Part shown: positions 27,769-49,565 of the stretch, piece after piece
Layout of the letters: every line of letters starts with the position of its first letter
Numbering within the stretch: the stretch's first letter is position 1
Assembly (NCBI GenBank): GCA_022821775.1
Contig: JAJECY010000107.1
Coordinates: forward strand, 861-64,860
Length of the DNA: 64,000 nt
Reading direction: 5' to 3'
From: Acidobacteriota bacterium
GTDB taxonomy: Bacteria > Acidobacteriota > Terriglobia > Versatilivoradales > Versatilivoraceae
The notes under the pieces: generated by a model
Told to the model about the DNA's origin: nothing
The model's input: the letters and a program-made list of their open reading frames with translations, nothing else
The model's database searches: none
Translations under genes and position numbers: made by a program

Positions 27769-27813
27769 TACCCTTCCAACAAAGCTCATATTGCCTTGGG
27801 TTCTTACCGCCAA

Positions 27814-32652: not shown

Positions 32653-33906
32653 CTAGAAATTGTAGACAAAGCTGAACGAAAAGAAGCTGTCGCGACGCGT
32701 CTGGTGGAGGATGTCGGATTCGTCCACGCGGGGAAAGGCGATCGATTCCACGCTGAGCGACCACCGATCCGTAATGCGCCGGTTGAATTCCAGGCTCACG
32801 ACCTGCGAGGAGCGGGTCGCGTCGAACATGATGCCGGCCAGCAACTCCGTCCCCTGGACGTCGTTGGGCGCCCACCGCGTGGCCACGAAGACGTCGTTGT
32901 CGAAGAAATTGGTTGCGTTGCCCGCCCGCCCGTCGTAGTTCCACTCGCCCAGAAGACTGATGTCGTGGTCCGATCCTCCCACCGTGTAGAAGGTGTATTC
33001 AAACCCGGAGACCATCGCTCCGTAGTTCTGCTTCACCCCCCGAAGGTTGCGCGCGCCTGAACGCTGAATGGTTTCGAGCTTGAGCAGCCAGGCGCCGAGC
33101 GTGAGCTGCGCGTCCAGGCCCAACTGGCGGATCTGCTCGTAGTAGGGCCGCAGAACCGGAACGCCCCGTGAGCTCAGCTCCGGTTGGAGAAAGGGTTCGC
33201 GGCTGGTGCCGTCAAAGAGGCTGGCGCCGATGTCCAGGGGGCCGAAACTGTGGCTGTAGCGGGCTGCGACATCGAAGTGCCACTGCTTGGCGCGGCTCTC
33301 GTAGAGAGGGTTGTCCTTGTCGACGTTCAGCAAGTAGCGCAGGCGGCCGCCGGGTCCCGGAAACGTGCGGGCGCGGTGGTAGGGCATGCCGAAAACCTCG
33401 ACCACGCCCCAATCTGCGGACCAGGTGAGATGGGCCATGGGCTGGCCCAGCTTTTCCTCTTCGTCGGGGTGTTCGATCAGATCGGTCTGGTTGACGATGT
33501 CGACCAGGTGGCGCGATTCCGCCACCCCCCAGAACACCCGGTCGACACCGAGGCGCAACTCCCATTCACCGCTGTCCCTCTGGCCGAACAACAGCAGATA
33601 GGCCTCGCGCAGGTCGAAATGGGTCCGGCGAGGGTCGGCGCTGTCGTAGCGGAAAAAGGGGGTCAGGGTAAGGCTGCGGCCGCGGGTGTCTTCCAGGTAG
33701 AATTCCGGCTCCGCCACCACCCCGCTGGCGTGCCAGCTCTGCTCCGGAAAGGCCCCGGACCAGGGATGCCAGCGGCTCTCCAGACGGACGTTTCCGGAAA
33801 AATCGAAGTCAATGGGCGGAGCCGAAAACCCTGGAGCCACCCCGAACAAGGCCACCCAAATCGAAACGAGAACGATGTGGATAGGGAGCCTGCGCCACCT
33901 CGTCAA
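32653..33906 (-). CDS. predicted outer-membrane beta-barrel protein (porin-like; C-terminal ...FVYNF)
   Basis: TTG start overlaps the upstream stop as TTGA. Signal peptide-like N-terminus. Alternating amphipathic beta-strand pattern, aromatic girdle and C-terminal Phe. Last gene of a three-gene operon. Confidence 0.6.
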   Translation of the reverse strand: MTRWRRLPIHIVLVSIWVALFGVAPGFSAPPIDFDFSGNVRLESRWHPWSGAFPEQSWHASGVVAEPEFYLEDTRGRSLTLTPFFRYDSADPRRTHFDLREAYLLLFGQRDSGEWELRLGVDRVFWGVAESRHLVDIVNQTDLIEHPDEEEKLGQPMAHLTWSADWGVVEVFGMPYHRARTFPGPGGRLRYLLNVDKDNPLYESRAKQWHFDVAARYSHSFGPLDIGASLFDGTSREPFLQPELSSRGVPVLRPYYEQIRQLGLDAQLTLGAWLLKLETIQRSGARNLRGVKQNYGAMVSGFEYTFYTVGGSDHDISLLGEWNYDGRAGNATNFFDNDVFVATRWAPNDVQGTELLAGIMFDATRSSQVVSLEFNRRITDRWSLSVESIAFPRVDESDILHQTRRDSFFSFSFVYNF

Positions 33907-34727
33907 CGGATTCGTCTCAGCCCTGTTCGTGTGAAGTCGTTCTCGTTCAGATTGTTCCGGAATTGAAAATCCGTCCACGTCAGAGTCGTGCTCTTGCCGG
34001 TGATGTGATTGACCATGGTCATCTTGCCGGCATACCAGTAGCGCTCCAGATACCGGCGGTAGTCCGCAACCGAAAGCGTCTTCAGGTGGGCGTTCTTGCG
34101 ATCGTAGTAGTCCACCTTCCAGACGCGCAACTCGTCCCGGTCCTGCCAGACCACCTGGCGGCTGTAGCCGGAGCGCGGGTTCGCCGGGATGCGTTCCGAG
34201 ACGGTGCAGGTCAGATCCCCGCACGGCTCCTCCCTCAGGTAACGATAGGTAAACTTCTCCACCTCCGGGGTGCCCATGTCTTCGTAGGCGAACTCACTGC
34301 CCATGAAGGAGCCGGACTGGTTCGACGAGCTGATTCGCTTGACCCGTCGCAGCGCCGGCAGATAGAGCCACTGTTCGTCATCTTTCTCCCTGTGGGAGTG
34401 GATCAGCAAAGCCGTTCCCTTCACGTCGCGCGGCTCGTCGAACACGAACAGGTTCTTGTCTCCCTCTCCCGGCACCTCCAGAACCTGCAAACGCAACTGC
34501 CGCCGGCTCTCCTGTCCGCCCCGGTTGCGCAGCACCATGGTCTGACGCGCGCTGAAATCACCGAAGCCGTCGCCGCGCGCGCGCGCGTCCACGGCGATCT
34601 TAAGGCCTCGGGCCTCCGGGTCCGCCTCCTGGCTCAAAGCCGGAGTCCGAGCGGACAAAAACGCCCAAACGGCCAGACAACTCATGCAATACAGGTACGG
34701 CCGAAGGTGGGAATAGGGATGTTTCAT
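33903..34727 (-). CDS. LolA-like periplasmic protein (outer-membrane lipoprotein-sorting protein family)
   Basis: ATG overlaps the MMPL stop as ATGA. Signal peptide MKHPYSHLRPYLYCMSCLAVWAFLSA. Conserved WLYLPALRRVKRIS...FMGSEFAYEDM block typical of the LolA-like family found next to MMPL exporters. Confidence 0.65.
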   Translation of the reverse strand: MKHPYSHLRPYLYCMSCLAVWAFLSARTPALSQEADPEARGLKIAVDARARGDGFGDFSARQTMVLRNRGGQESRRQLRLQVLEVPGEGDKNLFVFDEPRDVKGTALLIHSHREKDDEQWLYLPALRRVKRISSSNQSGSFMGSEFAYEDMGTPEVEKFTYRYLREEPCGDLTCTVSERIPANPRSGYSRQVVWQDRDELRVWKVDYYDRKNAHLKTLSVADYRRYLERYWYAGKMTMVNHITGKSTTLTWTDFQFRNNLNENDFTRTGLRRIR

Positions 34728-37006
34728 GATTTGTCTCGATCGATGGCCATCAGCAGGGGTGGGAGCAGCAGAAAATCGGCCAGAAGCGCAAAGCCCAGCG
34801 TGATGGCGACCAGCAGGCCCAGCACGGAGCTGACTTGAAATCCGGATGAAGCGAACACCAGAAAGCTGGCCGACAACACCGCGGTCGTGGTCCACAAGGC
34901 ATGACCGACGGTCCGGAAGGTGGAGCGCACGGACTCGGACGGGGAGGCTCCCCCGCGTCGGGCTTCCAGGTACTTGCTCATGAAATGAATGGTATCGTCC
35001 ACCACGATGCCGAAGGCCACGGCGCAGACGACCGAGGCGGAGAGACCTACCTGACCGACCAGGTAGCCCCACAAGCCGAAGCTCATGGCGGCCGGAATGA
35101 AGTTGGGGAACAGGCTGACCAGGCCGAAGCGCAGGCTCTTGAACGTCACGACCAGGATCAACGAAATCAGGGCCATGGCCGCGATGGTGCTGCGCAGCAT
35201 GCTCTCGATGTTTCTCTGAGCCAAGTGGGCGAATACCATGGTGACGCCCGATGCTTCTCCGGTCAACCCGGGTGCGTTGGTCCGTACCCACTCCTGTGCG
35301 CGCTTGTCCAGCTCGCGCAGACCCCGGGCGGACGCGTTGGCCACAACGGTCATTCGGGTGGCGGACTTGGCGACGTCGATGCGGTCGTTCAAGTCATTGC
35401 CGAGCGGCAGCGACAGCTCGTACAGCAGCAGATTCTGGGCCGCCAGCGCCGGGTCCTCCGGAATCCGATAGTAGGCGGGGGCGTCGCCGTGCATGTTCTT
35501 GTTCAGGCGTTTCATGACGTCGGGAAACGACTGAACGAAGTTCACTTCCGGCTGCTCCCGGTACCATTTGGCAAAAGCATCGGCAGTGCGCAGGTAGGCC
35601 GGATCGGTGATACCGCCTTCGTGCCCCGAATCCAGCGAGTACTCGAGCGTATCCAGTCCGGTCAGGTTCTCGATGACGAAGTCGGTATCGTTGCGGAAAC
35701 TGTAACGCTGATCGAAATAGCGTGTCCAGTTGTCGCTCAACTCGACCCGCGGAACACCGGCGATCAGCACCACTGTCACCATGGAGACCACCACCAGCAG
35801 AACCTTGCGCCGTTCCACCACCAATGCGCCCAAGCGGTCGAAGAAGCCGGGACGGTTGGATGGAGTCGGTAGCGGGTGCAGCGGAAGAATCGATAGCACG
35901 GCCGGCAGAAACGTCATCGAGTAGACGAAAATGCACACCAGGCCAAAGGCCACCATATTGCCCAAGACATGGAAGGGAGGCGAATCCGAGGCATTCAGGC
36001 TCAGAAATCCGATGGTGGTCGTCAGCGCGGCCAGAAAGACCGGGTAGGCATTGATCCGAAGCGACTTGCGTATTGCGTCGTCACGGTTCTGTCCCGACCG
36101 GAGGCCCGCCAGAGTGCTGGTGACGATGTGGACCGCGTGGGCGACGGCGATGGCCATGACGATGATCGGCACGCCGGCGCTGGCGGGGCTGAAGACCTGG
36201 CCGGTCCAGCCGGCGAAACCCATGGTGCCGACGATGACGAGCACCACCATGCTCACGATGGCCAGCGTCGCCAAAACCGACTTCAACAGCAAAGCCGAGC
36301 TCACGATGATGATCAGGAACACGATCGGCACCAGGGATTGCAAGTCGTTTGCGGTCGTCTCGGCGAGCACTCGATTCATGACCACGTCGCCGGTCAGGTA
36401 ATAGGAGATATCGGGATGGCGTTCCCGGGCCGCGGTGAGGAGGGCGTTGATGTGATCGGTGATTTCGATCACCGCCAGGTCCGAATTCTCCGGCAGCAGG
36501 AAGTTGATGGTCAGCCCGCCCACGCGTCCGTCGGTAGAGACCAGGCGTCCGGCGACGCCGACCTCCTCCAGCGCGATCGACTCGACGCGCGCCAGGTCGG
36601 CATCGCTCAATGAGCCGGCGTCCTCGACGAGCGGTCCGACCGCCAGGTCGTCCTCGCCGAATGCCTCGCTGTGGGTATAGTTGGTCAGCGAATCCACCCG
36701 GGTGGAATGGGGCGTGCGCCACCCGGCTTCGGTCAATTCCTCGATGGCGCCCAAAACCTCGCGTGTGAACACCGAGCCGTCCCGAGGCGCCACGGCGATC
36801 AGGGCCGTGTTGGTAGAGGCGTAGGTGTTTCCCAACGCATCGAAGGCCGCCAGTTGCGGGTTGTCCTCGCTGAACAGGATGCGGTAGTCGTTGGTGACGG
36901 TGATGTTGGGGGCGCCGGAGGCAAGGACCAGAATGGCGGCCAAAGCCACTCCGACGACCAGCCACCGGCGGCGGAGAATGACGTTGATGTATCGATCCAA
37001 TCGCAT
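34724..37006 (-). CDS. RND-superfamily exporter, MMPL family (two sterol-sensing-like 6-TM bundles)
   Basis: About 760 aa with two large periplasmic loops and 12 TM segments. MMPL-type motifs (GDVV..., GIVVDDTIHF). Start at M24 of the track ORF. Confidence 0.85.
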   Translation of the reverse strand: MRLDRYINVILRRRWLVVGVALAAILVLASGAPNITVTNDYRILFSEDNPQLAAFDALGNTYASTNTALIAVAPRDGSVFTREVLGAIEELTEAGWRTPHSTRVDSLTNYTHSEAFGEDDLAVGPLVEDAGSLSDADLARVESIALEEVGVAGRLVSTDGRVGGLTINFLLPENSDLAVIEITDHINALLTAARERHPDISYYLTGDVVMNRVLAETTANDLQSLVPIVFLIIIVSSALLLKSVLATLAIVSMVVLVIVGTMGFAGWTGQVFSPASAGVPIIVMAIAVAHAVHIVTSTLAGLRSGQNRDDAIRKSLRINAYPVFLAALTTTIGFLSLNASDSPPFHVLGNMVAFGLVCIFVYSMTFLPAVLSILPLHPLPTPSNRPGFFDRLGALVVERRKVLLVVVSMVTVVLIAGVPRVELSDNWTRYFDQRYSFRNDTDFVIENLTGLDTLEYSLDSGHEGGITDPAYLRTADAFAKWYREQPEVNFVQSFPDVMKRLNKNMHGDAPAYYRIPEDPALAAQNLLLYELSLPLGNDLNDRIDVAKSATRMTVVANASARGLRELDKRAQEWVRTNAPGLTGEASGVTMVFAHLAQRNIESMLRSTIAAMALISLILVVTFKSLRFGLVSLFPNFIPAAMSFGLWGYLVGQVGLSASVVCAVAFGIVVDDTIHFMSKYLEARRGGASPSESVRSTFRTVGHALWTTTAVLSASFLVFASSGFQVSSVLGLLVAITLGFALLADFLLLPPLLMAIDRDKS

Positions 37007-37235
37007 GACGGCAACCTGAATCGGATCCTTGCGAGTGATTCTCAACCTGTCCGTCTGCAAGCTGGACAGAGTCACAACCTGCCCATCTTATACCGACGAC
37101 CGATTAAATGGACTACCGAAACGGAGAGAATCGCAAATTTTTGGGCGTGGGCGTGATCGGGTGGGCCGTTCAATCGGTCTCAGGATCCTCACGGGGCGTC
37201 CGAAGCGGTTCCCGGGGACCTGTGAGTCCTTTGGC

Positions 37236-37997
37236 CTAGCGCAGCATGTCCCTGAGCAGGGGGGTCTGCCGTTTGCTCACGGTGTACTCCAGGCCGTTGG
37301 TCAGGGTCAAGAGCCAGCGTTGGCTGCTGAGAGGACTTATCCTGCGGACCTTGTCGAGGTTGACCAGAACGCCCCGGTGGATTCGCTGAAACTGGGTGTC
37401 GTTGAAGCGCTCGTCGATGGCCTGGAGGGTCTGAGTGGCCATGTAGCTCTTGTCGCGGGTCCGGATCCAGACGATTTCCCGGTCGGCCTGGAAGGCATAG
37501 ACCTCATCCGGATCCAGCAGATGGTAGTCCTCACCCTTCCTGGCCACGATCTTCACCAGCCCGCGCTTTTCCCCGGCCGTGGCCGCCCCCAGCGTTTGAG
37601 CTACCCGCTCCACGGCTTCCTGCCGGTTGCCCAGGGTCGCCTGGGCCCGCTCAACGGCCGTCTGCAGCCGATCCGGGCTGAACGGTTTCAGCAGATAGTC
37701 GACCGCGCCGACCTCGAAGGCGTTGAGGGCATGCTCACTGTAGGCGGTCACAAAGATGATGGAAGGCAGCGGTCCCCGGAGTTGCCGCAGCACCTGGAAG
37801 CCGTCCATCAAGGGCATCTGGATGTCCAGCAGAACCAGGTCCGGCCGGAGCTTTTCGATTTGCTGGAGCGCCTGCTGGCCGTTATCGGCTTCGCCGACGA
37901 CCGAGATGTCATCCATCTCGGCAAGATCCTCCAGCAGCACCCGCCGGGAAACGGGTTCGTCGTCCACCACCAGCGTTCGAAGGGGTTCCCTGGACAT
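37236..37997 (-). CDS. LytTR-family response regulator (receiver + LytTR DNA-binding domain)
   Basis: Receiver (LVVDDEP..., LDIQMP) plus C-terminal LytTR domain (VYAFQADREIVWIRTRDKSYMATQTLQAIDERF...FQRIHRGVLVNLDKV). Coordinates may be off by 1 nt. Confidence 0.8.
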   Translation of the reverse strand: MSREPLRTLVVDDEPVSRRVLLEDLAEMDDISVVGEADNGQQALQQIEKLRPDLVLLDIQMPLMDGFQVLRQLRGPLPSIIFVTAYSEHALNAFEVGAVDYLLKPFSPDRLQTAVERAQATLGNRQEAVERVAQTLGAATAGEKRGLVKIVARKGEDYHLLDPDEVYAFQADREIVWIRTRDKSYMATQTLQAIDERFNDTQFQRIHRGVLVNLDKVRRISPLSSQRWLLTLTNGLEYTVSKRQTPLLRDMLR

Positions 37998-38046
37998 GAT
38001 TGCCTGGTCATATAAGCCGATTCGGCGTTCAAGGCCGAAGGGGATT

Positions 38047-38079
38047 CCACCGGCGGGAAGTTCGTCCGCACCGGCGGCC
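38047..38079. promoter_or_regulatory. candidate LytTR-type operator: imperfect direct repeats (CACCGGCGG) with 21-bp period
   Basis: CCACCGGCGGG-11 nt-CACCGGCGGCC, 50-80 bp upstream of the LytTR regulator start in the divergent kinase/regulator gap. GC-rich, so chance occurrence is possible. Confidence 0.25.
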
Positions 38080-38314
38080 CCATCCGACCCGCGGGCGGAA
38101 TGCGTCGGGGGCCGGGGTGGAGCCGCGATGCGGCAGCCGCCATGGCCCCGCGAAGCCGCCCGCCGGCCCCACCGGTTGGCGCGGCAGCCGTTGCGCCACG
38201 GGCGATCCGGGAGCGTCCCGGCCTTGCTCTCAGAATCCCTATTATGCATCAGCGGCGCCAACCCAATGGAAATTGACCGTTCAGATCGTATACTGATGAG
38301 AGTAGGCGCGATCC

Positions 38315-40207
38315 ATGGACAACCCACCCACCGTTCACCTTCCGCTGCTGGTCAATACCCTGGGGCACATCTTTGGGCTGGCGGCCTTCAGCGGTTTTCT
38401 CTATTTGCTGTGGCGCAGCCGCCGACGGTCTCTCCTGGGGGACATCCGGCTGCCGGGCGGGGCCGCCCTGCTGGCCCTGTTATGGAACGCCGGCTCGCTG
38501 GGAGTGCTGGCGGCGGCCGATTCACCCAGCCTGGCGCGACGCGTGATGGTGGCGGGAAGCTTTGCCGCCTTGAGCCTGCTGCCGAGCGTGCTGCTGCACG
38601 TCTCGCTGGGCTCCTGGCGATCCCTGCTCTGCTGGATCGGCTACGGAGTGGGATTGCTGGCCTGCGGCATCCATCTGGCTGAAATCTTCGGCGCCGAGGT
38701 CACTTCCCATCAGTTCGGGCTGCAGCTCATCACCTTCGGGTTCGGAGCCCTGGCCGTGCTGGCGGCCCTCGTCCTCTGGAGGGACCAGCAGCAACGCAAG
38801 GGGGCGGGGATGCGCATGCTGGGCGCCATGGCCCTGTTCCTGTTCGCCGTTTCCTTCGTCCACTTCGGCGAGGCGCACGGAACCGAAGCCTGGGCCTACG
38901 AGCTCTTGGTGCACCATGCCGGCATCCCGCTGGCGCTGGTGGTGCTGCTGCAGGAATACCGCTTTCTGCTGCTGGACGTCTTCATTCGTTTCCTGGGGAA
39001 TGCGCTGCTGGCGGTGGTTTTCGCGGTGGGCCTGATCGGGCTGTTGAGCCGGCTGGAGCTCGATTTGGAGCTCGATCCCGCCTCCCCGCAAGGAGGATTT
39101 TCACTGGCTGTGACCATCACCGGGGTGGGCCTGGCCCTGCTTGGTTTTTCCGGGTCTCGCGGCTACCTTCAGAGATGGGTGGAGCGGCGTGTCTTCCGCA
39201 GGGGCAACCTGAGGGCGGCGCTGGGGCGGCTCCAGGCCCTGTCCGGCAGCGCCGGGAGCGAAGAGGAGTTCCTGCGACAGGCGGCCGAAGAAACGGCTTC
39301 CTTCGCCAAGGCCCGCCGGGTGGAGCTCCTGGAGGAAAGTGCTGTTGCCGAGGCGATTGTCGGGGAGGGCCTGCGCCCCCAGATTCTGGATCGAGGCCAG
39401 AGTTCGGAACTTGGCCACAGGCGCTGGGCCGAGGTGGCGGTGCCGCTACGGTTCGCCGAGGGAGACCGGAAGGCGCTGCTCTTGAGCGCTCGGCTGGCCG
39501 GCAGGCGCTATCTCAGTGAAGACCTGGAGGATCTGAACCGCCTGGCGACCGAGGTGGTGGCGCAAGTGGCTCGCCGGAGGCGCGCCGAGCTGCAGGGCCT
39601 GGCCACCCGGGCGGAGTTGCAGGCCCTGCGGGCGCAGATCAACCCCCACTTTCTCTTCAACTCTCTCAATGCACTCTACGGGCTCATTCCGCGAGCGGCG
39701 GCCGAGGCCCGGCGCACCGTTGTCAACCTGGCCGAGATCTTTCGCTACCTGCTGCAAGGCAATCGCCAGCAGGTACCATTGGAAGAGGAACTCCGAACCG
39801 TCCAGGCCTACCTGGAGGTGGAGCGCTTGCGGCTGGGGTCCCGCCTAGCCACCCGGATCGACGTCAGCCGTGAAGCCCTCCGGGTGGAAATCCCGGCCCT
39901 GTCGATCCAGCCCCTGGTCGAGAATGCCGTCAAGCACGGCATTAGCAGGCAGGTGGAGGGGGGAAGCATCCGCCTGGACGCTGCCGTGGAGGACGGTGTC
40001 CTCGAGGTTGCGGTCTCCGACGACGGCCCGGGATTTCAGTCGTCCGTACTTCGGGAGGATGGACAGGGCCTGGAGAATGTTCGGCGCCGGCTGCGGCTCT
40101 GCTACGGCGAACAGGGCACACTCCAGGTGCAATCCGATCCCGGGCGCACCAGGGTCGGCTATCGTGTGCCGCTGGAGAACAACCCCGCTGCCGTTCCAAC
40201 CAAGTAA
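38315..40207 (+). CDS. LytS/YehU-family sensor histidine kinase (multi-TM sensor + His_kinase + HATPase)
   Basis: Six or more N-terminal TM segments. QINPHFLFNSLN His-kinase motif. C-terminal ATPase G-boxes (DDGPGF...). Transcribed divergently from the LytTR regulator. Confidence 0.8.
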   Translation: MDNPPTVHLPLLVNTLGHIFGLAAFSGFLYLLWRSRRRSLLGDIRLPGGAALLALLWNAGSLGVLAAADSPSLARRVMVAGSFAALSLLPSVLLHVSLGSWRSLLCWIGYGVGLLACGIHLAEIFGAEVTSHQFGLQLITFGFGALAVLAALVLWRDQQQRKGAGMRMLGAMALFLFAVSFVHFGEAHGTEAWAYELLVHHAGIPLALVVLLQEYRFLLLDVFIRFLGNALLAVVFAVGLIGLLSRLELDLELDPASPQGGFSLAVTITGVGLALLGFSGSRGYLQRWVERRVFRRGNLRAALGRLQALSGSAGSEEEFLRQAAEETASFAKARRVELLEESAVAEAIVGEGLRPQILDRGQSSELGHRRWAEVAVPLRFAEGDRKALLLSARLAGRRYLSEDLEDLNRLATEVVAQVARRRRAELQGLATRAELQALRAQINPHFLFNSLNALYGLIPRAAAEARRTVVNLAEIFRYLLQGNRQQVPLEEELRTVQAYLEVERLRLGSRLATRIDVSREALRVEIPALSIQPLVENAVKHGISRQVEGGSIRLDAAVEDGVLEVAVSDDGPGFQSSVLREDGQGLENVRRRLRLCYGEQGTLQVQSDPGRTRVGYRVPLENNPAAVPTK

Positions 40208-40376
40208 GGCCTCGGCGAAAAAGCTGGCGAAATTTCCCTGCTACAATAAGAACCAGTTGACCGGAGTCCACGCGGAAAGGGAAGAACTTCCACTCCGGCC
40301 TTCCCGAACGGATTGCCCAGGGACGTCACCACTCTCGAGTCGGAGAGGATCCGTAGAGAAGAAACAAGAGAGAGAC

Positions 40377-41438
40377 ATGAAACATCTCATTGCATATTGT
40401 GCCCTGTCGGTGCATCTCGGGACGCTTGCCTTGGCGGATACGTCGGTTTCGGAACGCGACGTGAATGCGCTCGGATACGCTCGACCCACTTCGCATGCCG
40501 TGATTCCCACGGCGGCGCACGTGAAAAGCTTCAGAACCCGAGTCGTGATCGGCAACCTGACTTCGCATGAATATTCCATTACGGCCACTCTCTACGGTCC
40601 GAATGGCCTGGTGGGTCGGGAAATCATTTCCATGCCGGCGACTCACTACAAGGGGTGGGACAATTTTTTCAGGTCGGTGTTCGACTATACGGGAAACGGA
40701 TCGGTCGTGCTCGAGTCCGAGATTGACAGCGAGGCCGGCGATGCCGCGGACTCCCGCTACAAGTTCTACTTGACGGCCGAAGTCTATTCCGACTCGGAGA
40801 ACGGCCGTTTCAGCACGCCGGTGGTCAATGGGATCGCCCCGTTGGTCGATGAAGGCGATCGGGCCTACAATTTTGGAATCAGCGTCAACGAGGATCAAAG
40901 AACCAACATCGGCGCTTTCAACCCAAGCGATGCGCCTGTTTCGATTGAAGCCGAGGTCTCGGACGAGTCCGGGCTGGTCGAAACCGTCAGTTTTGAAATG
41001 GCGCCCTACTCCTGGCAGCAGAAACCCATCAGCGCCAGGGTAGACTTCGGATGGATCGAGTGGAAAACAAGCGGCGCCACCTACCTTTGGGCGGTATCGG
41101 TCGACAACCGTTCCAACGATGGAACCCTGGTATATCCGATGAAACCTGAAGCGGGTGCCCCAACGCCCACGGAATCCGGCGAGCTCCAGGCTTGCACCGG
41201 CGAAACCGTCCTTCGATCCGGAGGCCAATGCAGCCTCGACAGCGGGGAAAGCCCGATCGGGACGTTCACGGTGAACCCCAACGGCACGAGCTGCTTGAGT
41301 ATCGGTGGCTTTACCACCTGTTCGGCAACAGCGCACAACTTGAGAAATGCCGCGGTGAATCAATATCGGATCACCTTCGTGGCCGCCAGGAACGACGACG
41401 GGAGCTGGGTGATTTCAGAAATCTCGATATCGGGGTAG
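40377..41438 (+). CDS. secreted hypothetical protein with Cys-rich C-terminal tail
   Basis: Signal peptide MKHLIAYCALSVHLGTLALA. About 350 aa. Six Cys in the last 60 residues. Low-GC leader. Confidence 0.65.
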   Translation: MKHLIAYCALSVHLGTLALADTSVSERDVNALGYARPTSHAVIPTAAHVKSFRTRVVIGNLTSHEYSITATLYGPNGLVGREIISMPATHYKGWDNFFRSVFDYTGNGSVVLESEIDSEAGDAADSRYKFYLTAEVYSDSENGRFSTPVVNGIAPLVDEGDRAYNFGISVNEDQRTNIGAFNPSDAPVSIEAEVSDESGLVETVSFEMAPYSWQQKPISARVDFGWIEWKTSGATYLWAVSVDNRSNDGTLVYPMKPEAGAPTPTESGELQACTGETVLRSGGQCSLDSGESPIGTFTVNPNGTSCLSIGGFTTCSATAHNLRNAAVNQYRITFVAARNDDGSWVISEISISG

Positions 41439-41498
41439 CGACAGGCGACCGAACGTCTCAATCGGCACAGCCGGGAAGTGGCCGGAAGGAACTCGACC

Positions 41499-44400
41499 AT
41501 GCGGACAGCGTTCAGAACCAGCCTCACGATTCTTGGGGTCCTGTGCCTGATCGCAGCCTCTGCCGGCGTGGCCATTTCGGAGACTTCCCCCGGTGAGGGT
41601 GGGGAAAAGGCGCGTTTGACCCGGGAACAGGCCTCCGGCATGACCCGAGCCGCCGCCGCCCGGATTTCCGAGGAGAGCCGCGCAGGCGTCCGGGAACCGG
41701 CCGTTGAGGTCGCGCCTCGATCTTCCGCCACGTCGTCCGTCTCCGAACAGTCCGTGCAGGACTCCTCTCCCTCTCCTCCCACCGGCTATACGTTCGTTTC
41801 CTACCACGGCGAGATGCCGCGGGAGCGAATCGAGGGCGAGGTTGGCACCGGGGGCGTGCGCCCCCGGCTGGATCTGGACTGGCTGGGGACGGAGACCTCG
41901 ATCGAGATGCTGTCCGACCAGGCCGCCGCGGCCGGACGGGACTGGTCCTTCGGCTGGATCCGTCTCGCCGGGGAGGCCACGGCCAACGACCTGGCGCAGG
42001 CGCTCCAGGGCACGGGCGCCCGCATCCTCGGTTCCTCGGGAGTGCTCGTTCGCGCCAGCCTTCCGGGCGACGAGGCCCTTCTGCACGCGATCGCGGCGTT
42101 GCCTGAGGTCGATGGGCTGGGCGCCCTGCCCCCTGAGAGGAAACTCGCCCAAGCACTGGTGAACCCATCTCCCGGCGCCTCCACCCAGGAAATGACGCCG
42201 GTGTTCATCACCCTGATGACCGACGATCCCGACGCCCGCTGGCGGCAGGCGCTGCAGGACCTGGGGGCGGAGGTGGGACGCTTCGACCCGGACATCCGGG
42301 TCTATGCGGCCAACCTGCCCCGGGCTCGGCTGGAAGCGATTGCCGAGGCCGATTTCGTGCTGGCCATCCAACCCATCGGAATCGTCGAATCCGTGCTGGA
42401 CACGGCTGTCCCCGCCATGGGCGCCGATGCCCTGCGCCAATACGACGGGGCTCCCGGCCTATTCTCGGGTATCGGCGGCGCCTCGGTCCCCATCGGAGTC
42501 ATGGATACCGGCCTCAATATCAACCATCCCGACATCGCGTCCAACCGGGAAAGCGTGTGCGGGGCCAACTTCTCGCTGGACCTCGGCTTTTTCGGGTTCG
42601 GCGGGACCAGCGAGTCCGAGGACCTGTGGATCGATGCAGGCCTGCACGGAACCGCCGTAACCGGAACCATCCTCGGAAACGGCGCCATCGAACCCCGTTT
42701 CGCCGGCATGGCCCCTTCGGTTCGCCACGTCCGTTTCGCCAAGGTCCTGAACAGCTCCGGGTTCGGATTCGGGGACGGGGTCAGTCGAGCCATGGATTTC
42801 CTGGCCCGCCCCACCGAGTGCGCCGAAGCGGCCAGTCCGTCGCTCCCGGTCAAACCCCTGATCGTCAATATGAGCCTGGGTGATTCATCCCGGGAATTCG
42901 AGGGAAGGGATGTCGATGAGCGCAAGCTCGACTCCATCGTCTGGAGTCACCGCCAACTGTATGTCGTCGCGCAATCGAACGAAGGGATCAACGGCTTTTC
43001 CGACTTTGCCAGCGCCAAGAACTCGCTGGCGGTCGGCGCCGTGCTGGACAGCGGGGACATCGCCGCCTTCAGCAGCCACGGGCCCACCTCCGACGGACGC
43101 CTGGCGCCCCAGGTGGTCGCCACCGGAGTCGGCATCCATTCGGCCCGGGGCGGGGGCAGCCGCGGGGGCCATGTCCGCTTCAACGGCACCAGTTTCTCGT
43201 CGCCCGCCGTGGCCGGAGTGGCCGCCCTGCTGCTGGATGCGGTCCCTGCCTTCCGCGAGCAGCCCGCGCTCACCCGGGCTCGGCTGATGGCCGGCGCCAT
43301 CCGGCCGGATCCCTGGTTGGAGGGCGCCGGGGCATTCCCCGCGACCAACAGCGACGGGCCCGGCAGGCTGCATGCCCAGTACGGACTGGGCAAGGTGTCG
43401 GCCCGCACCAGCGTGCTCAACCGGAATCGGGCCGACGGTTGGGCCGGCGGGGCCGCGGTCTCCGAGCTGCGGGACGGCGAGTACGCCTATCGGGACATCC
43501 GGGTGCCGGAAGGCGCCAGCCGCCTGGACCTGGTGCTGGCCTGGGACGAGCCGCCCACCGACACCATCGGCAGCGCCGTTTTGAACGATCTCGACCTGTG
43601 GCTCGACCGGGACGGCGATTGCGGCGCCGTCGCCTGCGGAGAGCATGTTTCGTCCTCCCGCGTGGACAACGTGGAGTGGATCATCCTCAGCAACCCGCAA
43701 CCGGGAGTCTACCGGGCGAAGGTGGCGGCCCACCGCGTCTACACCGCTCCGCCGCGGGCGGCGCTGGCCTGGACGGTGATCCGGGGCGCCTCCACTCCGA
43801 ACCTGGAGATCGAGGCCGACGGCAGCTCCCTCGAAGGCGGCCGGGAACAGGAACTGACGCTGACCCTGGGCACGGACGCCTACGTGGCGGCCGGAACCCG
43901 GCTCCACATCGACTGCCGCGACGCCGGGGGACCATCCGGCTGCAACCAGGTGCGGATCCACACCGTGGAGGTGTCCCGCCAGGATGGGCTGACGGTGGAT
44001 CTATCGTCCGAACTCGAGGTTCCCGAACCCGACCTCCCGGCATTCCCGGGTCAGGAGGTGATCGAGGCCGCACCCGTCCCCCTGGGGTCCTCGATCCCGC
44101 TCGGTGAAGTCTCGGTCGGGGAGGCCCGGGGCGTCAAGTTGAGTGTTTCCTACGCCGGCGAGCCGGACACGGCGCGCCTCTACTTTACGGCGAGCGCCTG
44201 GAATGCGCGGGCGGCATCGGTGTCGGTCGGCCTGGGCGCGGGCAGCCGGCCCCCATCCGGCGTTACCGGCAGGCCCCCCAACGACGACTTCCTGTCGGCG
44301 ATCCCGATCGAGGGCGGGGAGGGAGCGCTGGCTCTGGATCTGCTGCCGGCCACCCCGGAGCCGGGAGAGCCTCTGTTCACCTCCCGGCGGGGACGCCCGG

Positions 44401-47285
44401 CCGGCTCGGTCTGGTACACCTGGACGGCGCCGTACGACGGTCCGGTCCATTTCGACATTCCCCCGGCTACGGATCGCGGGGACATGCGCAACGACCGCAT
44501 CGACATCTATCGAGGGGACCGCATCGCGGCGCTGCAGGAGATCGCCTCCGGCCAGTGGGGATCGACATTCTTCGCCGAGCAGGGGCGAACCTATCGCATC
44601 CGGGTGAGCAAAGACGGCAGGGGCGCCGCCCTGGAGCTTCGCTGGGCCGAGGGGTCCCGCCCCGCCAACGACAACCTGTCGGAGGCGATCCCGATCGAGG
44701 GGCCGGCCGGCATGGTCCAGGGCAACAACCGGGGGGCCACTCTGGAGCCCGGAGAATGGTTCGGGTTCGCGGCGGCCACCACCTGGTACCGCTGGACCGC
44801 ACCCGGCGACGGCCTGTGGCTGTTCGAGAGCGATGAACCGCGGCGTGTCTTCGTGTTCGAGAAAGACGCAACCGAGAGCGGAGTCTTCGGGAGGGACCTC
44901 TTCCCCGGGGATGCCGCCGCCGCGGACGGCATTCCCCGGCTCCGGCTGGTATCGAACTTTCCCCTGGAGCGCTCCGTGGTCAACGCCGGAGCCGGAAGGG
45001 AATATCTCATCGCCGTGGCCGAGCCCACCGCCTATTCGTCCGGAGGCTCCTACCCGCTGAGATGGTCGCCGCTGCCCTTCGTTCCCCGCGCTCCGAACGA
45101 CGACATTGCAGGTGCGGAACCGATCGAGAGTGCGCTGTCGTCGGAACAGCCCATCGTGGTGGACCCCTTTGCGACCGTGGAGCCGGGAGAGCCGCCCGAG
45201 AGCGGTGTCCGCACGAACTGGTGGGTGTGGGAAGCGCCGGAGGACGGCCGCTACACCTGGAGCCTGGCGGAGGCTGGGGGACTGTCTCTGTTGCCGTTTT
45301 CCACCCATTCGAGGCTGCGGGTGACCGTGTTTACCGGAAGCTCCACCGAAGACCTGCGCCTGGTCGCCGAGAGTCGAATGGACGCGGAGCCGTCCGACTT
45401 CGTCTTTGAGGCCGTGGCCGGACAACGGTACTGGATCGCGGCCGGCTTTCCGACCGGTGATCTTTCAGCCTATTCAATACCAGGGGCCGCCGCGAATATT
45501 GTCTGGGGGCCCACCCCCGGCAACGACCGTTTCTACAGCGCCGCGCCGCTTTCGGGAGCCTCGGGTTCGACCACCGGGTCGAATCGCTTTGCGACCATGG
45601 AGCCGAGCGAACGGATCGGCCCGCTGGGCCAGTCCTCGCTCTGGTGGCGGTACCAGGCGCCCGCTTCCGGGTGGTACCGGTTTCGGATCGACGAGCCTTT
45701 CGCTCCCTGGGTGCTGGCCGCCTACCGGGAAACCCTCCGGGGGCTGGGCCCGCTCGAGTTCGTCAGAAGCAGCCATCAGCCGGAAGGGCTGGAGTCCTAC
45801 GCCATCGAGCTGGTCTTTTTTGCCGAGGCGGGAACCGGCTACAGGATCCGGCTCGGGAGCCGCGGCGGCGAATCCGGCGGCGAGTTCACCTTGCACTGGG
45901 AGGAAAGTGAAGCCCCGGTCTGGCTCAAGTTCGTGGGAAGCCTGGCCGACGGAGACCTGGACGCCCAGGGGACCCCGGTGGCGCTTCGGGCCCCGGCCGG
46001 CCTGGCCCTCAACGGCCGCGGAACCGTGCTCTACCTGGCTTCCCGGCTTGGCCTGCAAGTGTTTGACCGCGACTCCCGGACCGGAAATCTGACCCTGCTT
46101 CAGGAGATGGGAGACTACGACCTGGAAGACAGTTCGCTGATCTGGGATCGACTCAGAGCCGCGCTCTATGTCCATCGGTGCGGGGCCTGGCGCCGGTTGG
46201 CCGCGACCGACGGAACCCACCGCCAGCTTCGGGACGAGGGCATGCTGTCGGTCACGGACCTGGAGGGCGCCCCCAACTGCAGCGGCGACGTCTTCATGGA
46301 CTCCGGGGGATCGTTCATCCATACGGTCGATCCCATGCAGGGTCAACTGCAGGTTCTGGCCTTCGATTCGCCGAGCGATCTGCGCCACGTCCAGACCACG
46401 CCGGTCCCCGGGCTGCGGCGCGCGCTGATCTCCAACGGCGGCGGCCACCTCTACGCCGCCACGCGCTCGTCGGTCCTGGTCTTCGAGCGCGACGGGGAAA
46501 CGGGAGAGCTCACCCTGGCGGGAGAAACCGAACCGGGCTTGCGTAACCTGCGATCCATTGCGATCAGCAGCGACGACCGCTATCTGTTCGCCTTCGACGA
46601 CAACGGCACCCGGTCGAACCTGTTCCAACTGGAGGACGATCCCGCCAGTCCGCGGCCGGTCGGCAGCCTGCCGCAATTCTGGTTCCCGCCGCGCGGGTAC
46701 TTCGCCTTCGACAACCGGTGCGGAGGGATGGCAAGAAGAGGAAGCCCGGCGGTCGACCTGTTCTGCAAGGATTCGGCCTTCGGCGTGCGATGGCAGCCGG
46801 AGAACGGCGCCCTGGAGCCGACCGACCTGGTGGCCCCCTGGCAGCCGGACCGGTTCGACAACCCCATCCCCGACTTCGGCCACACGCAACACTTCGCGGC
46901 CAGTTCCGACGGCAGGCACGCCTACCTCAGCACCGAAGAGGCGGGCCTGCTCATCTTCGAGCGGGTCGGAGTCGGCGCCGATGGATTCGTGCGGCTGGAG
47001 ATGCTCTCGGTCTCACCCGGCCAGGTCGGTTTCGGCCCGGTTTCGAGCGGAGGCTGCATCGCCGTCGAAAACGTGTTCATCGACGCCACCCACTTCGCCG
47101 TCCTCCATTCCAAGTGGCAGACCCGGGCCGGACCGGAGTCCGAATGGACCGACATCGAGGGAACCGAAACGGTCGGCGAACTCTGCGCCTACACGCCCTC
47201 CGCTCCCGGCGAATACCGGCTGGTTGCGGAGATCACGATCGACGGCGAAACCGGACAGTACGCCAGCAACATCCTGATCCGTTAG
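41499..47285 (+). CDS. giant secreted subtilisin-like (S8) serine protease fused to four PPC-like domains, a lactonase-type 7-bladed beta-propeller and a C-terminal beta-sandwich
   Basis: GGAAGGAA Shine-Dalgarno. Signal peptide. Catalytic triad motifs VMDTGLN (Asp), HGTAVTG (His) and GTSFSSPAVAG (Ser). Four ~125-aa repeats each starting P(P/A)ND(D/N)...A.PIE with a WY.W/F core. LQVFDRDSRTGNLTL-type propeller region. Confidence 0.85.
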   Translation: MRTAFRTSLTILGVLCLIAASAGVAISETSPGEGGEKARLTREQASGMTRAAAARISEESRAGVREPAVEVAPRSSATSSVSEQSVQDSSPSPPTGYTFVSYHGEMPRERIEGEVGTGGVRPRLDLDWLGTETSIEMLSDQAAAAGRDWSFGWIRLAGEATANDLAQALQGTGARILGSSGVLVRASLPGDEALLHAIAALPEVDGLGALPPERKLAQALVNPSPGASTQEMTPVFITLMTDDPDARWRQALQDLGAEVGRFDPDIRVYAANLPRARLEAIAEADFVLAIQPIGIVESVLDTAVPAMGADALRQYDGAPGLFSGIGGASVPIGVMDTGLNINHPDIASNRESVCGANFSLDLGFFGFGGTSESEDLWIDAGLHGTAVTGTILGNGAIEPRFAGMAPSVRHVRFAKVLNSSGFGFGDGVSRAMDFLARPTECAEAASPSLPVKPLIVNMSLGDSSREFEGRDVDERKLDSIVWSHRQLYVVAQSNEGINGFSDFASAKNSLAVGAVLDSGDIAAFSSHGPTSDGRLAPQVVATGVGIHSARGGGSRGGHVRFNGTSFSSPAVAGVAALLLDAVPAFREQPALTRARLMAGAIRPDPWLEGAGAFPATNSDGPGRLHAQYGLGKVSARTSVLNRNRADGWAGGAAVSELRDGEYAYRDIRVPEGASRLDLVLAWDEPPTDTIGSAVLNDLDLWLDRDGDCGAVACGEHVSSSRVDNVEWIILSNPQPGVYRAKVAAHRVYTAPPRAALAWTVIRGASTPNLEIEADGSSLEGGREQELTLTLGTDAYVAAGTRLHIDCRDAGGPSGCNQVRIHTVEVSRQDGLTVDLSSELEVPEPDLPAFPGQEVIEAAPVPLGSSIPLGEVSVGEARGVKLSVSYAGEPDTARLYFTASAWNARAASVSVGLGAGSRPPSGVTGRPPNDDFLSAIPIEGGEGALALDLLPATPEPGEPLFTSRRGRPAGSVWYTWTAPYDGPVHFDIPPATDRGDMRNDRIDIYRGDRIAALQEIASGQWGSTFFAEQGRTYRIRVSKDGRGAALELRWAEGSRPANDNLSEAIPIEGPAGMVQGNNRGATLEPGEWFGFAAATTWYRWTAPGDGLWLFESDEPRRVFVFEKDATESGVFGRDLFPGDAAAADGIPRLRLVSNFPLERSVVNAGAGREYLIAVAEPTAYSSGGSYPLRWSPLPFVPRAPNDDIAGAEPIESALSSEQPIVVDPFATVEPGEPPESGVRTNWWVWEAPEDGRYTWSLAEAGGLSLLPFSTHSRLRVTVFTGSSTEDLRLVAESRMDAEPSDFVFEAVAGQRYWIAAGFPTGDLSAYSIPGAAANIVWGPTPGNDRFYSAAPLSGASGSTTGSNRFATMEPSERIGPLGQSSLWWRYQAPASGWYRFRIDEPFAPWVLAAYRETLRGLGPLEFVRSSHQPEGLESYAIELVFFAEAGTGYRIRLGSRGGESGGEFTLHWEESEAPVWLKFVGSLADGDLDAQGTPVALRAPAGLALNGRGTVLYLASRLGLQVFDRDSRTGNLTLLQEMGDYDLEDSSLIWDRLRAALYVHRCGAWRRLAATDGTHRQLRDEGMLSVTDLEGAPNCSGDVFMDSGGSFIHTVDPMQGQLQVLAFDSPSDLRHVQTTPVPGLRRALISNGGGHLYAATRSSVLVFERDGETGELTLAGETEPGLRNLRSIAISSDDRYLFAFDDNGTRSNLFQLEDDPASPRPVGSLPQFWFPPRGYFAFDNRCGGMARRGSPAVDLFCKDSAFGVRWQPENGALEPTDLVAPWQPDRFDNPIPDFGHTQHFAASSDGRHAYLSTEEAGLLIFERVGVGADGFVRLEMLSVSPGQVGFGPVSSGGCIAVENVFIDATHFAVLHSKWQTRAGPESEWTDIEGTETVGELCAYTPSAPGEYRLVAEITIDGETGQYASNILIR

Positions 47286-47352
47286 GATTGTCTGAAGGAG
47301 ATCGTCACGCGCGGTGTGGACCCGATGATGGGGGAGGGCCGGGAGGTTTCTC

Positions 47353-47883
47353 GTGGTAACCAAGCGGACGCGGCGATCGGTGCTTTTCATGCTGCCGGCC
47401 ATCCTCACCCTTCTCCTGCCGGCGTTGGCTGCCGAGCAGGCCGCCCCCGCGTACCAGCCGGTCCAACAGTACGATCCCAAGCGGGATGCCGCCGCAGACA
47501 TCGACGCCGCCGTGGCCGAGGCCAAACGCTCCGGAAGGCACGTGCTGATCGAGGTTGGAGGCGAGTGGTGCGGCTGGTGCCACCGGCTGGACGACTACCT
47601 GAAGGCGAAAAGGAAGCTGAATGCCCTGCTGGAGCGGAACTTCGTGATGGTCAAGGTGAACTACAGCCCGGAGAACGAGAACGAAGAGGTGCTCTCACGC
47701 TACCCCGAGGTGGCCGGCTATCCCCACTTCTTCGTGCTGGACGGCCAGGGGAAGCTTTTGCACTCGCAGGACACCGCCAAGCTGGAAGAAGGCAAGTCCT
47801 ACCACGCCCGCAGGTTCAAGCGCTTTCTGAACCGCTGGGGACCGCCCAAGCCGGAACCTGCCCGCCGCAAGCGCTGGCGATGA
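47353..47883 (+). CDS. secreted thioredoxin-fold protein (Thioredoxin_7-like, WCGWCH active site)
   Basis: GGGAGG Shine-Dalgarno 7 nt before GTG. Signal peptide. CGWC redox motif. Confidence 0.7.
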   Translation: MVTKRTRRSVLFMLPAILTLLLPALAAEQAAPAYQPVQQYDPKRDAAADIDAAVAEAKRSGRHVLIEVGGEWCGWCHRLDDYLKAKRKLNALLERNFVMVKVNYSPENENEEVLSRYPEVAGYPHFFVLDGQGKLLHSQDTAKLEEGKSYHARRFKRFLNRWGPPKPEPARRKRWR

Positions 47884-47908
47884 TTCTCAACAGGACAAGC
47901 GGAACCAC
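47871..47908 (+). repeat. left copy of a 38-bp direct repeat (GCGCTGGCGATGATTCTCAACAGGACAAGCGGAACCAC)
   Basis: 34/38 identical to 48425-48462. Similarity extends a further ~10 bp upstream with a 3-nt indel. Contains the thioredoxin stop codon. Confidence 0.6.
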
Positions 47909-48060
47909 AAGCAATTGCGATGGCCCATACCTCCCGCCTCCATCATCTCTACCCCACTCTCCGCCTGCACCGCATCAACTACAGCACGCGGCGACCCATT
48001 CGGTCGAAGTGCGGCACTGATCAGAACGTTCGTGTCGAGAACGACCCGCTTAGCTTTCAT
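47887..48060 (-). pseudogene. truncated VapC-type PIN-domain toxin (only about 30 N-terminal residues conserved)
   Basis: ATG overlaps the antitoxin stop (GATGAAAGCTAA). MKAKRVVLDTNVLISAALRPNGSPRAVVDA is a classic PIN N-terminus. The frame then diverges and terminates inside the left direct repeat (...FRLSC*). Confidence 0.55.
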
Positions 48061-48328
48061 CGGCCAGCAATGTTTCGAGGCCGGATTCCGTCAAGCCATT
48101 GGCGGACGCTTGTTGGCCCAAGGCATCCATCGTTGCCGTCAGACGCTCCCAAGCAGCTCCACGAAGGCGTTCATAGTGCTGCATCGACATCATCACGCCA
48201 ACCGCTCTACCTTTCTTGGTCACACGCACGGGCCCGCTCTGGGCGGCGTCGAGCAATGAGCCGAAGCGGTTCTTGGCGTCTCTGGCAGCAATTTCTCTCA
48301 TTAGGGCCATTATAGTTAAAGTAGCCAT
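48050..48328 (-). CDS. Phd/YefM-family type II antitoxin
   Basis: About 92 aa. ISATEAKNRF-like motif (REIAARDAKNRFGSLLDAAQSGPVRVTKKGRAVGVMMSMQHYERL). AT-rich upstream leader. The ORF-track start at 48412 is an extension. Confidence 0.75.
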   Translation of the reverse strand: MATLTIMALMREIAARDAKNRFGSLLDAAQSGPVRVTKKGRAVGVMMSMQHYERLRGAAWERLTATMDALGQQASANGLTESGLETLLADES

Positions 48329-48424
48329 TTCATAACATAGGCACCCCTTGAACAACCCGTCTACCCTGTGCCACCGCGAACAAGATGATTCCTTCAACCT
48401 ACTCGAAGCCACTTCCGCCCGCCG

Positions 48425-48462
48425 GCGCTGGTGACGATTCTCAACAGGACAAGCGCACCCAC
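48425..48462 (+). repeat. right copy of the 38-bp direct repeat
   Basis: Encodes, on the minus strand, the last residues (...VRLSC*) and stop of the BNR gene. Confidence 0.6.
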
Positions 48463-49565
48463 TTCACGTCCATCCGTTCCGTGAGCCCTGCGTAATAGAC
48501 GACCAGCACCTCCCCGTTGGACAGGACGGTGGCGTAGGGCAGGCCGTAGCTCCAGTCGCTCATGACGTCCAGGGTTTCGGCCATGTTCACGCCGGCGGAG
48601 GGGCGGCCTCGCAGGACGGCGGCGTGGTCGTAGAGGACGATCTCGGTTTCGGCCGGGAAAGCGGCGTCAATGGCGGGGGCCAGGCGGGCCCGGATGGATT
48701 GGGTGCCGAACCGGTCCACCCAGGCCAGCACCGTTCTGCCGTCGGGCAGGATGGCGGGGGTGGCCGCCTGGTCGGGAAAGCCCAGGTCCTCGGGGTCGGT
48801 CCAGCTTTGCCCCTCGTCCCGGCTGATGCGCCGCCGGATGTTGAGGTAGGTTCCCTCCCTGCTGTCGAAATACCAGGTGAAGGTGACGATACGCCCGTCG
48901 GGGGCCACTCCCGCCCGCTGGTCCCAGTTGAACATCCTGCCGGTCGGGTCCTGGCTCACCGTGTGGGGGGTGCTCCAGGACCTGCCTTCATCTTCCGAAT
49001 AGAGATAGACCACCCGCTGATACCACTTGGAAGCGTCCAGGTAGGGCTTGTTGGTCTCCACGCTCAATGCCAGCCGGCCGCCGGCCAGCTCCATCAGGGG
49101 GCTGGTCACGCTGGGCGGCCCCAGCTCGGCCGGGGTGGGGATGACCCGCCAGGGGCTCCAGCTCCGGCCCCCGTCGTCCGACTCCGACCAGAGCACCGTC
49201 ATGGGCAGACAGCCTTCGGTTTCGGCATGAAAGATCTTGGAGCCGGGGAAGGATTCCCGGTCCACCCACATGGAAATCAGCACCAGGCGTCCGGACGAGA
49301 GCTGGGTGGGGTAGGCTACCCACAGCGAGCCCTTCTTTCCCCCGATCCGGGGAGTCTCCAGAATCGTCGGTTCCGTCCAGCTCCGCCCCTGGTCTTCCGA
49401 CCAGCAGAGCTCCAGGGTGGCCCGGTCCGAGTCCTTGTTGGGACCCGCCTTGTAGGTGGCCAGCACCCGTCCGTCCTTCAGTCCCAACACCATGGGAAAG
49501 GTCGCGACGGCCCGGTCGCTTCCCACCTCCCCCTGGTGCAGGGTACCACTGGCGACGATCTTCAT
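48441..49565 (-). CDS. BNR/Asp-box repeat protein (sialidase/glycosyl-hydrolase-like beta-propeller)
   Basis: GGAGG Shine-Dalgarno 6 nt before ATG (MKIVASG...). Four Asp-boxes: SEDQGRSW, SDDGGRSW, SEDEGRSW, SRDEGQSW. Start may be off by 1 nt. Confidence 0.8.
   Translation of the reverse strand: MKIVASGTLHQGEVGSDRAVATFPMVLGLKDGRVLATYKAGPNKDSDRATLELCWSEDQGRSWTEPTILETPRIGGKKGSLWVAYPTQLSSGRLVLISMWVDRESFPGSKIFHAETEGCLPMTVLWSESDDGGRSWSPWRVIPTPAELGPPSVTSPLMELAGGRLALSVETNKPYLDASKWYQRVVYLYSEDEGRSWSTPHTVSQDPTGRMFNWDQRAGVAPDGRIVTFTWYFDSREGTYLNIRRRISRDEGQSWTDPEDLGFPDQAATPAILPDGRTVLAWVDRFGTQSIRARLAPAIDAAFPAETEIVLYDHAAVLRGRPSAGVNMAETLDVMSDWSYGLPYATVLSNGEVLVVYYAGLTERMDVKWVRLSC

Follow-up and report, generated by a model that had tools for sequence, protein, structure and literature searches.

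Do a two-component system, a giant secreted protease and a thioredoxin that lie side by side on one acidobacterial scaffold work together, or are they simply neighbours? The question is raised by a 64,000-nt stretch of a metagenome scaffold from an Acidobacteriota bacterium (hereafter the window: GenBank assembly GCA_022821775.1, contig JAJECY010000107.1, positions 861 to 64,860 of the forward strand), where five genes follow each other. Pfam searches largely bear out their identities as a preliminary description of this DNA had given them. In window coordinates they are:

37236-37997, minus strand: response regulator (RR), 253 aa, with a receiver and a LytTR DNA-binding domain; start MSREPLRTLVVDDE
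38315-40207, plus strand: histidine kinase (HK), with transmembrane (TM) helices, a cytoplasmic linker, His_kinase PF06580 and HATPase_c
40377-41438, plus strand: P353, 353 aa, with a signal peptide, an N-terminal region (aa 36-262) and a four-Cys C-terminal domain, cdom (aa 266-353, nt 41172-41435)
41499-47285, plus strand: giant subtilase (S8), predicted to be secreted, 1928 aa from the ATG at 41499 or 1935 aa from the GTG at 41478
47353-47883, plus strand: exported thioredoxin-fold protein (Trx), DsbH/DsbD-gamma-like, CGWC at residues 73-76 (C73/C76)

Our answer, held with moderate confidence, is that the region is a genus-level syntenic block holding two independent units: the LytTR two-component system and a P353-S8 cassette. 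The first would be an ordinary divergent system, made of a polytopic-membrane PF06580 kinase and a LytTR regulator that would control its own gene through a conserved pair of 9-bp repeats lying 51-80 bp upstream of it. The second would be a two-gene cassette, both products bearing signal peptides, with its own promoter-like element and flanked by insertion sequences (IS) or integrase genes in other genomes. As for Trx, it would be a redox protein of general function in the periplasm, kept in the block by synteny. The identities of the genes, the patterns of conservation and the recurrence of the four-Cys domain are direct observations, whereas autoregulation, the route of secretion, the substrate and what the four-Cys domain does are inferred.

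Which neighbours follow the protease

A scan of 185,579 species genomes gave 156 loci with homologues of the protease; 79 were kept and compared by tblastn and clustering of open reading frames (ORFs). Among these 79 loci the regulator, the kinase, full-length P353 and Trx accompany S8 only in a close clade, Ca. Versatilivorator/Terriglobia, whose S8 is at least 76% identical (loci L003-L012 and L054). Within this clade P353 stands directly upstream of S8 in 11 relatives out of 11, both genes being intact in all of them. The other genes are less constant: the two-component system is intact in 8 of the 11, L003 and L010 keeping only truncated pieces of RR and HK and L009 lacking it altogether, and Trx is intact in 6 of 10, absent from L005, L007 and L009 and present as a 66-aa remnant in L012. 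As P353 and S8 are kept while the other neighbours are lost, the conserved unit is the pair P353-S8; Trx is dispensable for it in these relatives.

The pair is also found in a different genomic context. At L086, in a segment bounded by transposase and integrase genes (7317-8975 and 16066-17880), a 1904-aa S8 is preceded at 23 bp by a P353 homologue (45% identity), with neither a two-component system nor Trx. At L005 two identical 391-aa ORFs bracket P353-S8 (7432-8607 and 16402-17577). It is possible that P353 and S8 travel together as a composite cassette.

A four-Cys domain beside and within related proteases

P353 has no match in Pfam or NCBIfam. Its AF2 model (pLDDT 79.7) is all-beta: the N-terminal region (~235 aa, aa 36-262) is predicted as two beta-sandwiches, followed by a compact seven-strand C-terminal domain; the fold search gave nothing beyond Ig-like matches of a generic kind, whose TM scores were low. 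Six C-terminal cysteines had been announced for this protein; we count four (273, 285, 306 and 315), one more lying in the signal peptide. Only 59 homologues are detectable; the N-terminal region also exists by itself, as tandem copies, or joined to reprolysin-like metalloproteases (P0178, P0179).

The four cysteines belong to cdom, an 88-aa domain which matches nothing in Pfam or in the PDB. With a local hidden Markov model run over 81 loci, cdom was detected in 28, every time on the strand of S8. In every close relative, and among the other Acidobacteriota in L013, L016, L030, L050 and L077, it forms the end of the protein encoded upstream; it likewise ends upstream proteins of 565-1330 aa in the Pseudomonadales loci L048, L052, L053 and L059. 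In L022, L033, L048 and L063 the protease itself carries cdom as a C-terminal fusion; P0236 (2211 aa, 45% identical to S8) also bears it, at residues 2132-2206. The upstream partners that carry cdom have CARDB, LRR or PPC domains, or none known. P353 is linked to the protease through cdom, and cdom recurs on diverse adhesin-like partners upstream of such proteases.

The domain is rare: a single-sequence search found 44 clusters among 1.84 billion representatives, with cdom at the extreme C-terminus in about 30 of the 44, as read from match coordinates. It is internal in L073 and L044. A word-indexed search with the cdom profile returned short proteins only.

One of these loci deserves mention by itself: in L059, a Pseudomonadales metagenome-assembled genome (MAG), a 1218-aa eukaryotic-like LRR and CARDB protein (6021-9677) ends with cdom, and its gene directly precedes that of an S8 giant.

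The two-component system and the reach of its regulator

RR is a LytTR-family regulator, with an N-terminal receiver (Response_reg, 3e-28, 98.6 bits) and a C-terminal LytTR domain (1.2e-20, 73.9 bits), both above the Pfam cutoffs; its ORF spans 37236-38327 on the minus strand, the actual start being the ATG at 37997. HK has the catalytic core of the LytS/BtsS type (HPK8), with PF06580 (E 3.2e-25, 88.6 bits) and HATPase_c (31.5 bits), behind about nine hydrophobic TM helices of unassigned type within the first 280 aa. The couple therefore resembles LytSR and BtsSR (YehUT) by a receiver-LytTR regulator whose nearest NCBIfam models are BtsR and LytR, and by a PF06580-HATPase_c core placed after a polytopic membrane sensor. 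It differs from them in that all scores lie under the equivalog cutoffs and that Pfam and NCBIfam searches of HK detected no 5TMR-LYT or GAF domain and no LytS or BtsS equivalog. RR was considered as an orthologue of BtsR (153 bits for a cutoff of 246) or of LytR (125 bits for a cutoff of 375), and both assignments were rejected on these scores.

The elements found around these genes are:

38048-38077, plus strand: two 9-bp direct repeats, CACCGGCGG-N12-CACCGGCGG, 51-80 bp upstream of the RR start codon
38247-38294, plus strand: third copy of the motif, CATCAGCGG (38247-38255), followed by a sigma70-like TGGAAA-16-TATACT (38267-38294), upstream of HK
40239-40247, plus strand: conserved extended -10-like element TGCTACAAT (TGcTACAAT), ~130 nt upstream of the P353 ATG

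The repeat of 21-bp period pointed out in the preliminary description is real: CACCGGCGG occurs at 38048 and 38069, with a 12-bp spacer, and the pair is kept as [C/G]ACCGGCGG-N12-CA[C/T]C[A/G]GCGG in 9/9 orthologous RR/HK gaps, the centre of the gap being variable. The 9-mer is present in 6 copies in the window for 2.2 expected, a number reached by 5 of 100 shuffles. In repeat length and spacing the pair has the geometry of the AgrA, ComE and PlnC sites; the sequence of the repeat, AYCRGCGG, is on the other hand unlike the published LytTR consensus sites. In the alignment of RR/HK gaps (A4), the block formed by CATCAGCGG and TGGAAA-16-TATACT is almost invariant. This third copy before the promoter-like site of HK, together with the conserved pair, fits autoregulation by the LytTR protein. 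The pair is a candidate autoregulatory site, through which RR most likely controls its own gene.

The LytTR-type geometry that had been proposed is conserved in the RR/HK gap, whereas the regulator-target system built upon it is unsupported. A LytTR regulon is recognised by paired 9-bp repeats at the promoters of the genes it controls, and the preliminary description expected the repeat at those of its putative targets; none of the gaps preceding P353, S8 and Trx contains the motif, even in its degenerate form CAYCRGCGG. A search for the paired motif relaxed to three mismatches was too permissive to inform.

The window contains a single other exact match to AYCRNCGG-N13-AYCRNCGG, at 40818-40846 on the minus strand. 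It falls within the P353 coding sequence, over a conserved PVVNGIAP peptide; about 0.03 exact matches are expected by chance (a rough estimate), and this one is probably a by-product of coding constraint.

P353 is preceded by an element of its own. In an alignment of 12 sequences (A5) the -10-like element reads GCTACAAT in 9 and GCTAGAAT in one (L006); it has diverged in L007 and could not be aligned in L012. It is retained in L003, L010, L009 and L005, genomes that have lost the two-component system by deletion, do not have it, or have an IS between it and the cassette. Judged from this conservation, it is a putative promoter proper to the P353-S8 cassette.

Further downstream, the leader of P353 (40325-40376, ~50 nt before the start codon) is almost invariant in 12 relatives and can form a CTCTC...GAGAG hairpin. 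A structured leader RNA was considered and abandoned: the sequence is conserved, yet there are no compensatory pairs and no Rfam match. More generally, Rfam gave nothing relevant over window positions 36000-49000.

The main competitor of our reading is that of the preliminary description: the LytTR system would sense a membrane or extracellular cue and activate an operon HK-P353-S8-Trx, whose thioredoxin would form or isomerise the disulfides of P353 and of the protease. The layout is compatible with it, since these four genes share one orientation and the stretches between them, of 169, 60 and 67 bp, contain no predicted terminator; the LytTR-type geometry is conserved in the RR/HK gap, with its third copy ahead of HK; the linkage persists in 8 of 11 relatives despite variation of the left flank; and cysteines are available, four in P353 and 12 in S8 beyond the signal peptide. 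Other observations speak against it. P353-S8 is intact where the two-component system has been deleted or is absent (L003, L010, L009) and where Trx is absent or a remnant (L005, L007, L009, L012); the linkage is seen neither in the 68 more distant loci nor in L086; the motif is missing before P353, S8 and Trx; and the -10-like element of P353 is conserved independently of the two-component system. Regulator, protease and thioredoxin co-occur in the close clade only, and even there lose parts that the cassette does without. We consider this account unlikely, although it deserves more credit than the others discussed below.

Some observations weigh in turn against the separation into two units and against the pairing of P353 with the protease. 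With no terminator predicted in the gaps between HK and Trx, control of P353-S8 by read-through from the kinase promoter is possible but unsupported. The adjacency RR-HK-P353-S8 has outlasted a rearrangement of the left flank—the MMPL cluster beside RR is present in the window genome only, RR of the relatives having other flanking genes—which gives mild support to the linkage. One P353 homologue has no S8 next to it. About 50 of the 79 loci lack a four-Cys domain near S8, and stand-alone four-Cys proteins exist in unrelated contexts, so that cdom is not exclusive to S8 loci.

The giant subtilase and its family

The ATG at 41499 is preceded by a Shine-Dalgarno-like GGAAGG and agrees with the public gene call of 1928 aa. 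From the N-terminus, the protein is divided as follows:

signal peptide
aa ~100-330: conserved N-region
aa 335-638: catalytic domain
aa ~650-775: PPC/KP-43-like beta domain
aa ~776-930: beta region
44268-45908, plus strand: four all-beta repeats in the AF2 model, aa 931-1477, 130-146 aa each
45921-46967, plus strand: seven-bladed beta-propeller of Lactonase/YVTN type, aa 1482-1830
47004-47282, plus strand: C-terminal Ig-like beta domain, aa 1843-1935, with two Cys

The catalytic domain matches Peptidase_S8 (PF00082, 7.5e-33, 114.5 bits), and D343, H390, S572 and the oxyanion N501 are invariant in 13 homologues: with its Asp/His/Ser triad intact, the protein is a subtilase. The closest solved structures are Tk-SP (3afg, 2.7e-23) and KP-43 (1wmd, 3.2e-14). 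S8 shares with them the catalytic match and the triad, and the alignment with KP-43 runs on into the beta domain that follows. It differs from both by a conserved N-region of ~300 aa without Pfam match and by about 1150 extra C-terminal residues, i.e. the four repeats, the propeller and the Ig-like domain. The sole PPC-like signal of S8 lies at aa 676-750, directly after the catalytic domain (E 0.0024, 19.2 bits, below the 25.9 cutoff), a position which fits the KP-43 and Tk-SP-type subtilases as nearest solved relatives.

The four repeats had been taken for PPC domains. They are real and share the motif ND-x-[FL]..A...AT.EPGE...W[YW].W.AP.DG, although self-BLASTP of S8 detected no internal repeats; however, none of 28 units from seven homologues matches Pfam PPC (PF04151) at E<=1, and we rejected this assignment on the level of sequence. 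The profile built from the 28 units (A6) matches no other Pfam family and nothing in the PDB. Compared by hhalign with the PPC-like domain of S8 itself, the repeats gave a probability below 1%, and comparisons with the middle and C-terminal domains were also negative.

The propeller announced at the C-terminal side is on the contrary well recovered. Lactonase PF10282 is matched with an E of 3e-6 on the whole protein, and of 4.8e-10 (39.6 bits, cutoff 21.7) on aa 1478-1840; the AF2 model has 28 strands, that is seven blades. Foldseek aligned it to 1ri6, 3fgb, 6nau, 4qrj, 1l0q and WD40 proteins (TMt 0.5-0.78), among which are 6-phosphogluconolactonase-like and archaeal S-layer YVTN proteins, WD40 and YVTN propellers matching equally well. 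Such matches, obtained with a predicted model, support the fold and not lactonase chemistry. With YbhE (1ri6) and the S-layer YVTN-PKD protein (1l0q) the likeness consists in a Pfam score above gathering, 28 predicted strands and TMt of 0.53-0.68; the difference is that the propeller here is internal to a secreted protease, a context nearer to surface-layer YVTN proteins than to a metabolic enzyme. In many gammaproteobacterial homologues the match to S8 stops near aa 1831. The whole C-terminal extension, from the repeats, taken as beta-sandwiches, to the Ig-like end, would bind a target and direct the protease to a macromolecular substrate, e.g. the host matrix or a cell surface.

This architecture, initially thought unusual, proved common. 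A protein search gave at least 792 homologues; among the best 120 of these, identities range from 39 to 94%, and nearly all span more than 75% of the query, most of them more than 85%. The 79 loci are all in MAGs of Acidobacteriota (Versatilivorator, Bryobacterales, Aminicenantes), Binatia/Thermodesulfobacteriota and Pseudomonadales (Ca. Azotimanducaceae, Pseudohongiella). Some genomes have two or three copies, and tandem paralogues occur at some loci. Identity across phyla is 55-63%, and several gammaproteobacterial copies are at least as near to acidobacterial ones as to other gammaproteobacterial ones, which is consistent with horizontal spread. Judging from these identities, uncultured symbionts belonging to three phyla or more have probably exchanged the family horizontally; sharing across phyla and a multi-copy state are the hallmarks of a horizontally exchanged trait.

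To our knowledge no member of this long S8 family has been characterised so far, and our survey of the literature on the taxa concerned and on sponge-symbiont subtilases found nothing usable. We are thus in the presence of a large family, confined up to now to uncultured MAGs, many of them from sponge metagenomes, in at least three phyla and often in several copies. The regulator neighbourhood is ordinary, and the two-component system and Trx being routine, a regulator-protease-thioredoxin system would add little; the protease family with its partner domain is an uncharacterised variant of subtilases and is moderately interesting.

The source of the scaffold is probably a sponge-associated acidobacterium, as far as the names of MAGs, rather than sample metadata, indicate. 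The closest relatives of the scaffold are MAGs named Ca. Versatilivorator (Acidobacteriota, Terriglobia), and the bins SB06xx, RHO, COS and IRC are, we assume, from sponge metagenome studies. SB06xx bins are listed among sponge Entoporibacteria (PMC7883664).

Possible roles of the partner domain

Adjacent or fused to the protease, cdom offers a concrete handle on how symbionts interact with host matrix or surfaces. It is tempting to see in it a formerly unrecognised tag or handle that would join adhesin-like, eukaryotic-like (LRR, CARDB) surface proteins to horizontally spread giant subtilases in sponge symbionts. We regard this proposal as doubtful; if true, it would amount to a new system of protease and tagged partner remodelling the symbiont surface or the host matrix.

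In a stricter version, which replaces our reading of the cassette, cdom would be a recognition or sorting tag; S8 would bind it, for example by the propeller or the repeats, and then process, release or anchor the tagged surface proteins. The logic recalls C-terminal-domain and sortase-type systems such as the C-terminal domain (CTD)/PorU couple of the type IX secretion system. The extreme C-terminal place of cdom in most carriers suits a tag, as do its presence, in two phyla, on various adhesin-like proteins with CARDB, LRR or PPC domains whose genes come just before an S8 giant, and the fact that the protease sometimes bears it. Most S8-giant loci, on the other hand, have no four-Cys gene nearby, cdom occurs also far from any S8 and internally in L073 and L044, and no cleavage motif was identified. 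Modelled by analogy in this way, the mechanism seems quite improbable.

P353 might rather be a dedicated inhibitor, chaperone or immunity partner, acting as an intermolecular equivalent of a pro-domain that would keep the protease inactive in the periplasm. Its closeness to the protease could be read so, since in 11/11 relatives and at L086 it lies tightly upstream, at 24-90 bp for most loci, and the fusion of its N-domain to the reprolysin-like metalloproteases P0178 and P0179 suggests a protease-associated module. However, the other partners replace this N-domain by unrelated domains, so that the shared part is the four-Cys domain only; a protease that itself ends with cdom is at odds with an inhibitor; and P353 resembles neither the known subtilisin inhibitors nor I9 propeptides. 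We give this role little chance.

That the five genes, P353 and S8 included, are functionally unconnected and adjacent through recent common ancestry alone accords with the confinement of the full arrangement to one clade (S8 at least 76% identical), but is hardly credible when P353-S8 adjacency holds at 45% P353 identity among other, mobile elements and when adjacency or fusion of the four-Cys domain recurs in Pseudomonadales.

Thioredoxin and flanking genes

In the reading that we prefer, with the cassette independent of the two-component system, Trx is a bystander. By its fold (Thioredoxin_7, 8e-15, 55.2 bits; Thioredox_DsbH, 3e-8), its CxxC and its predicted export signal, a single N-terminal hydrophobic segment at residues 9-27, it is a periplasmic thioredoxin-fold oxidoreductase. 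It has in common with DsbH and DsbD-gamma-like proteins (Thioredoxin_7, DUF255) the signal peptide, the thioredoxin fold and the CGWC. It departs from them by a score far under the DsbH equivalog cutoff of NCBIfam (34.8 bits for 190), by the lack of a membrane reductase partner nearby and by its inconsistent presence beside the cassette in relatives.

The 3' end of the Trx gene is overlapped by one copy (47858-47908) of a 51-nt imperfect direct repeat, 82% identical to the other copy at 48412-48462. The repeat brackets a 554-bp segment with a lone PhdYeFM-type antitoxin gene on the minus strand; this segment looks like an insertion that duplicated its target.

On the left, directly downstream of the RR gene, an MMPL transporter, a DUF1329/TP_0789-like protein and a 400-aa protein are encoded in the same orientation (32653-37075, minus strand). 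Farther away, a gene at 27796-30360 encodes a planctomycete-type PSCyt1/PSCyt2/PSD1 cytochrome protein; next to it the source scaffold has a gene for a DUF1501 protein, a pair kept on the left flank in several relatives. On the right, positions 52283-55557, and on to ~58800, contain TraG/VirB4-like ATPase and CagX/VirB9-like genes of a type IV secretion/conjugation module, which is possibly an integrative conjugative element.

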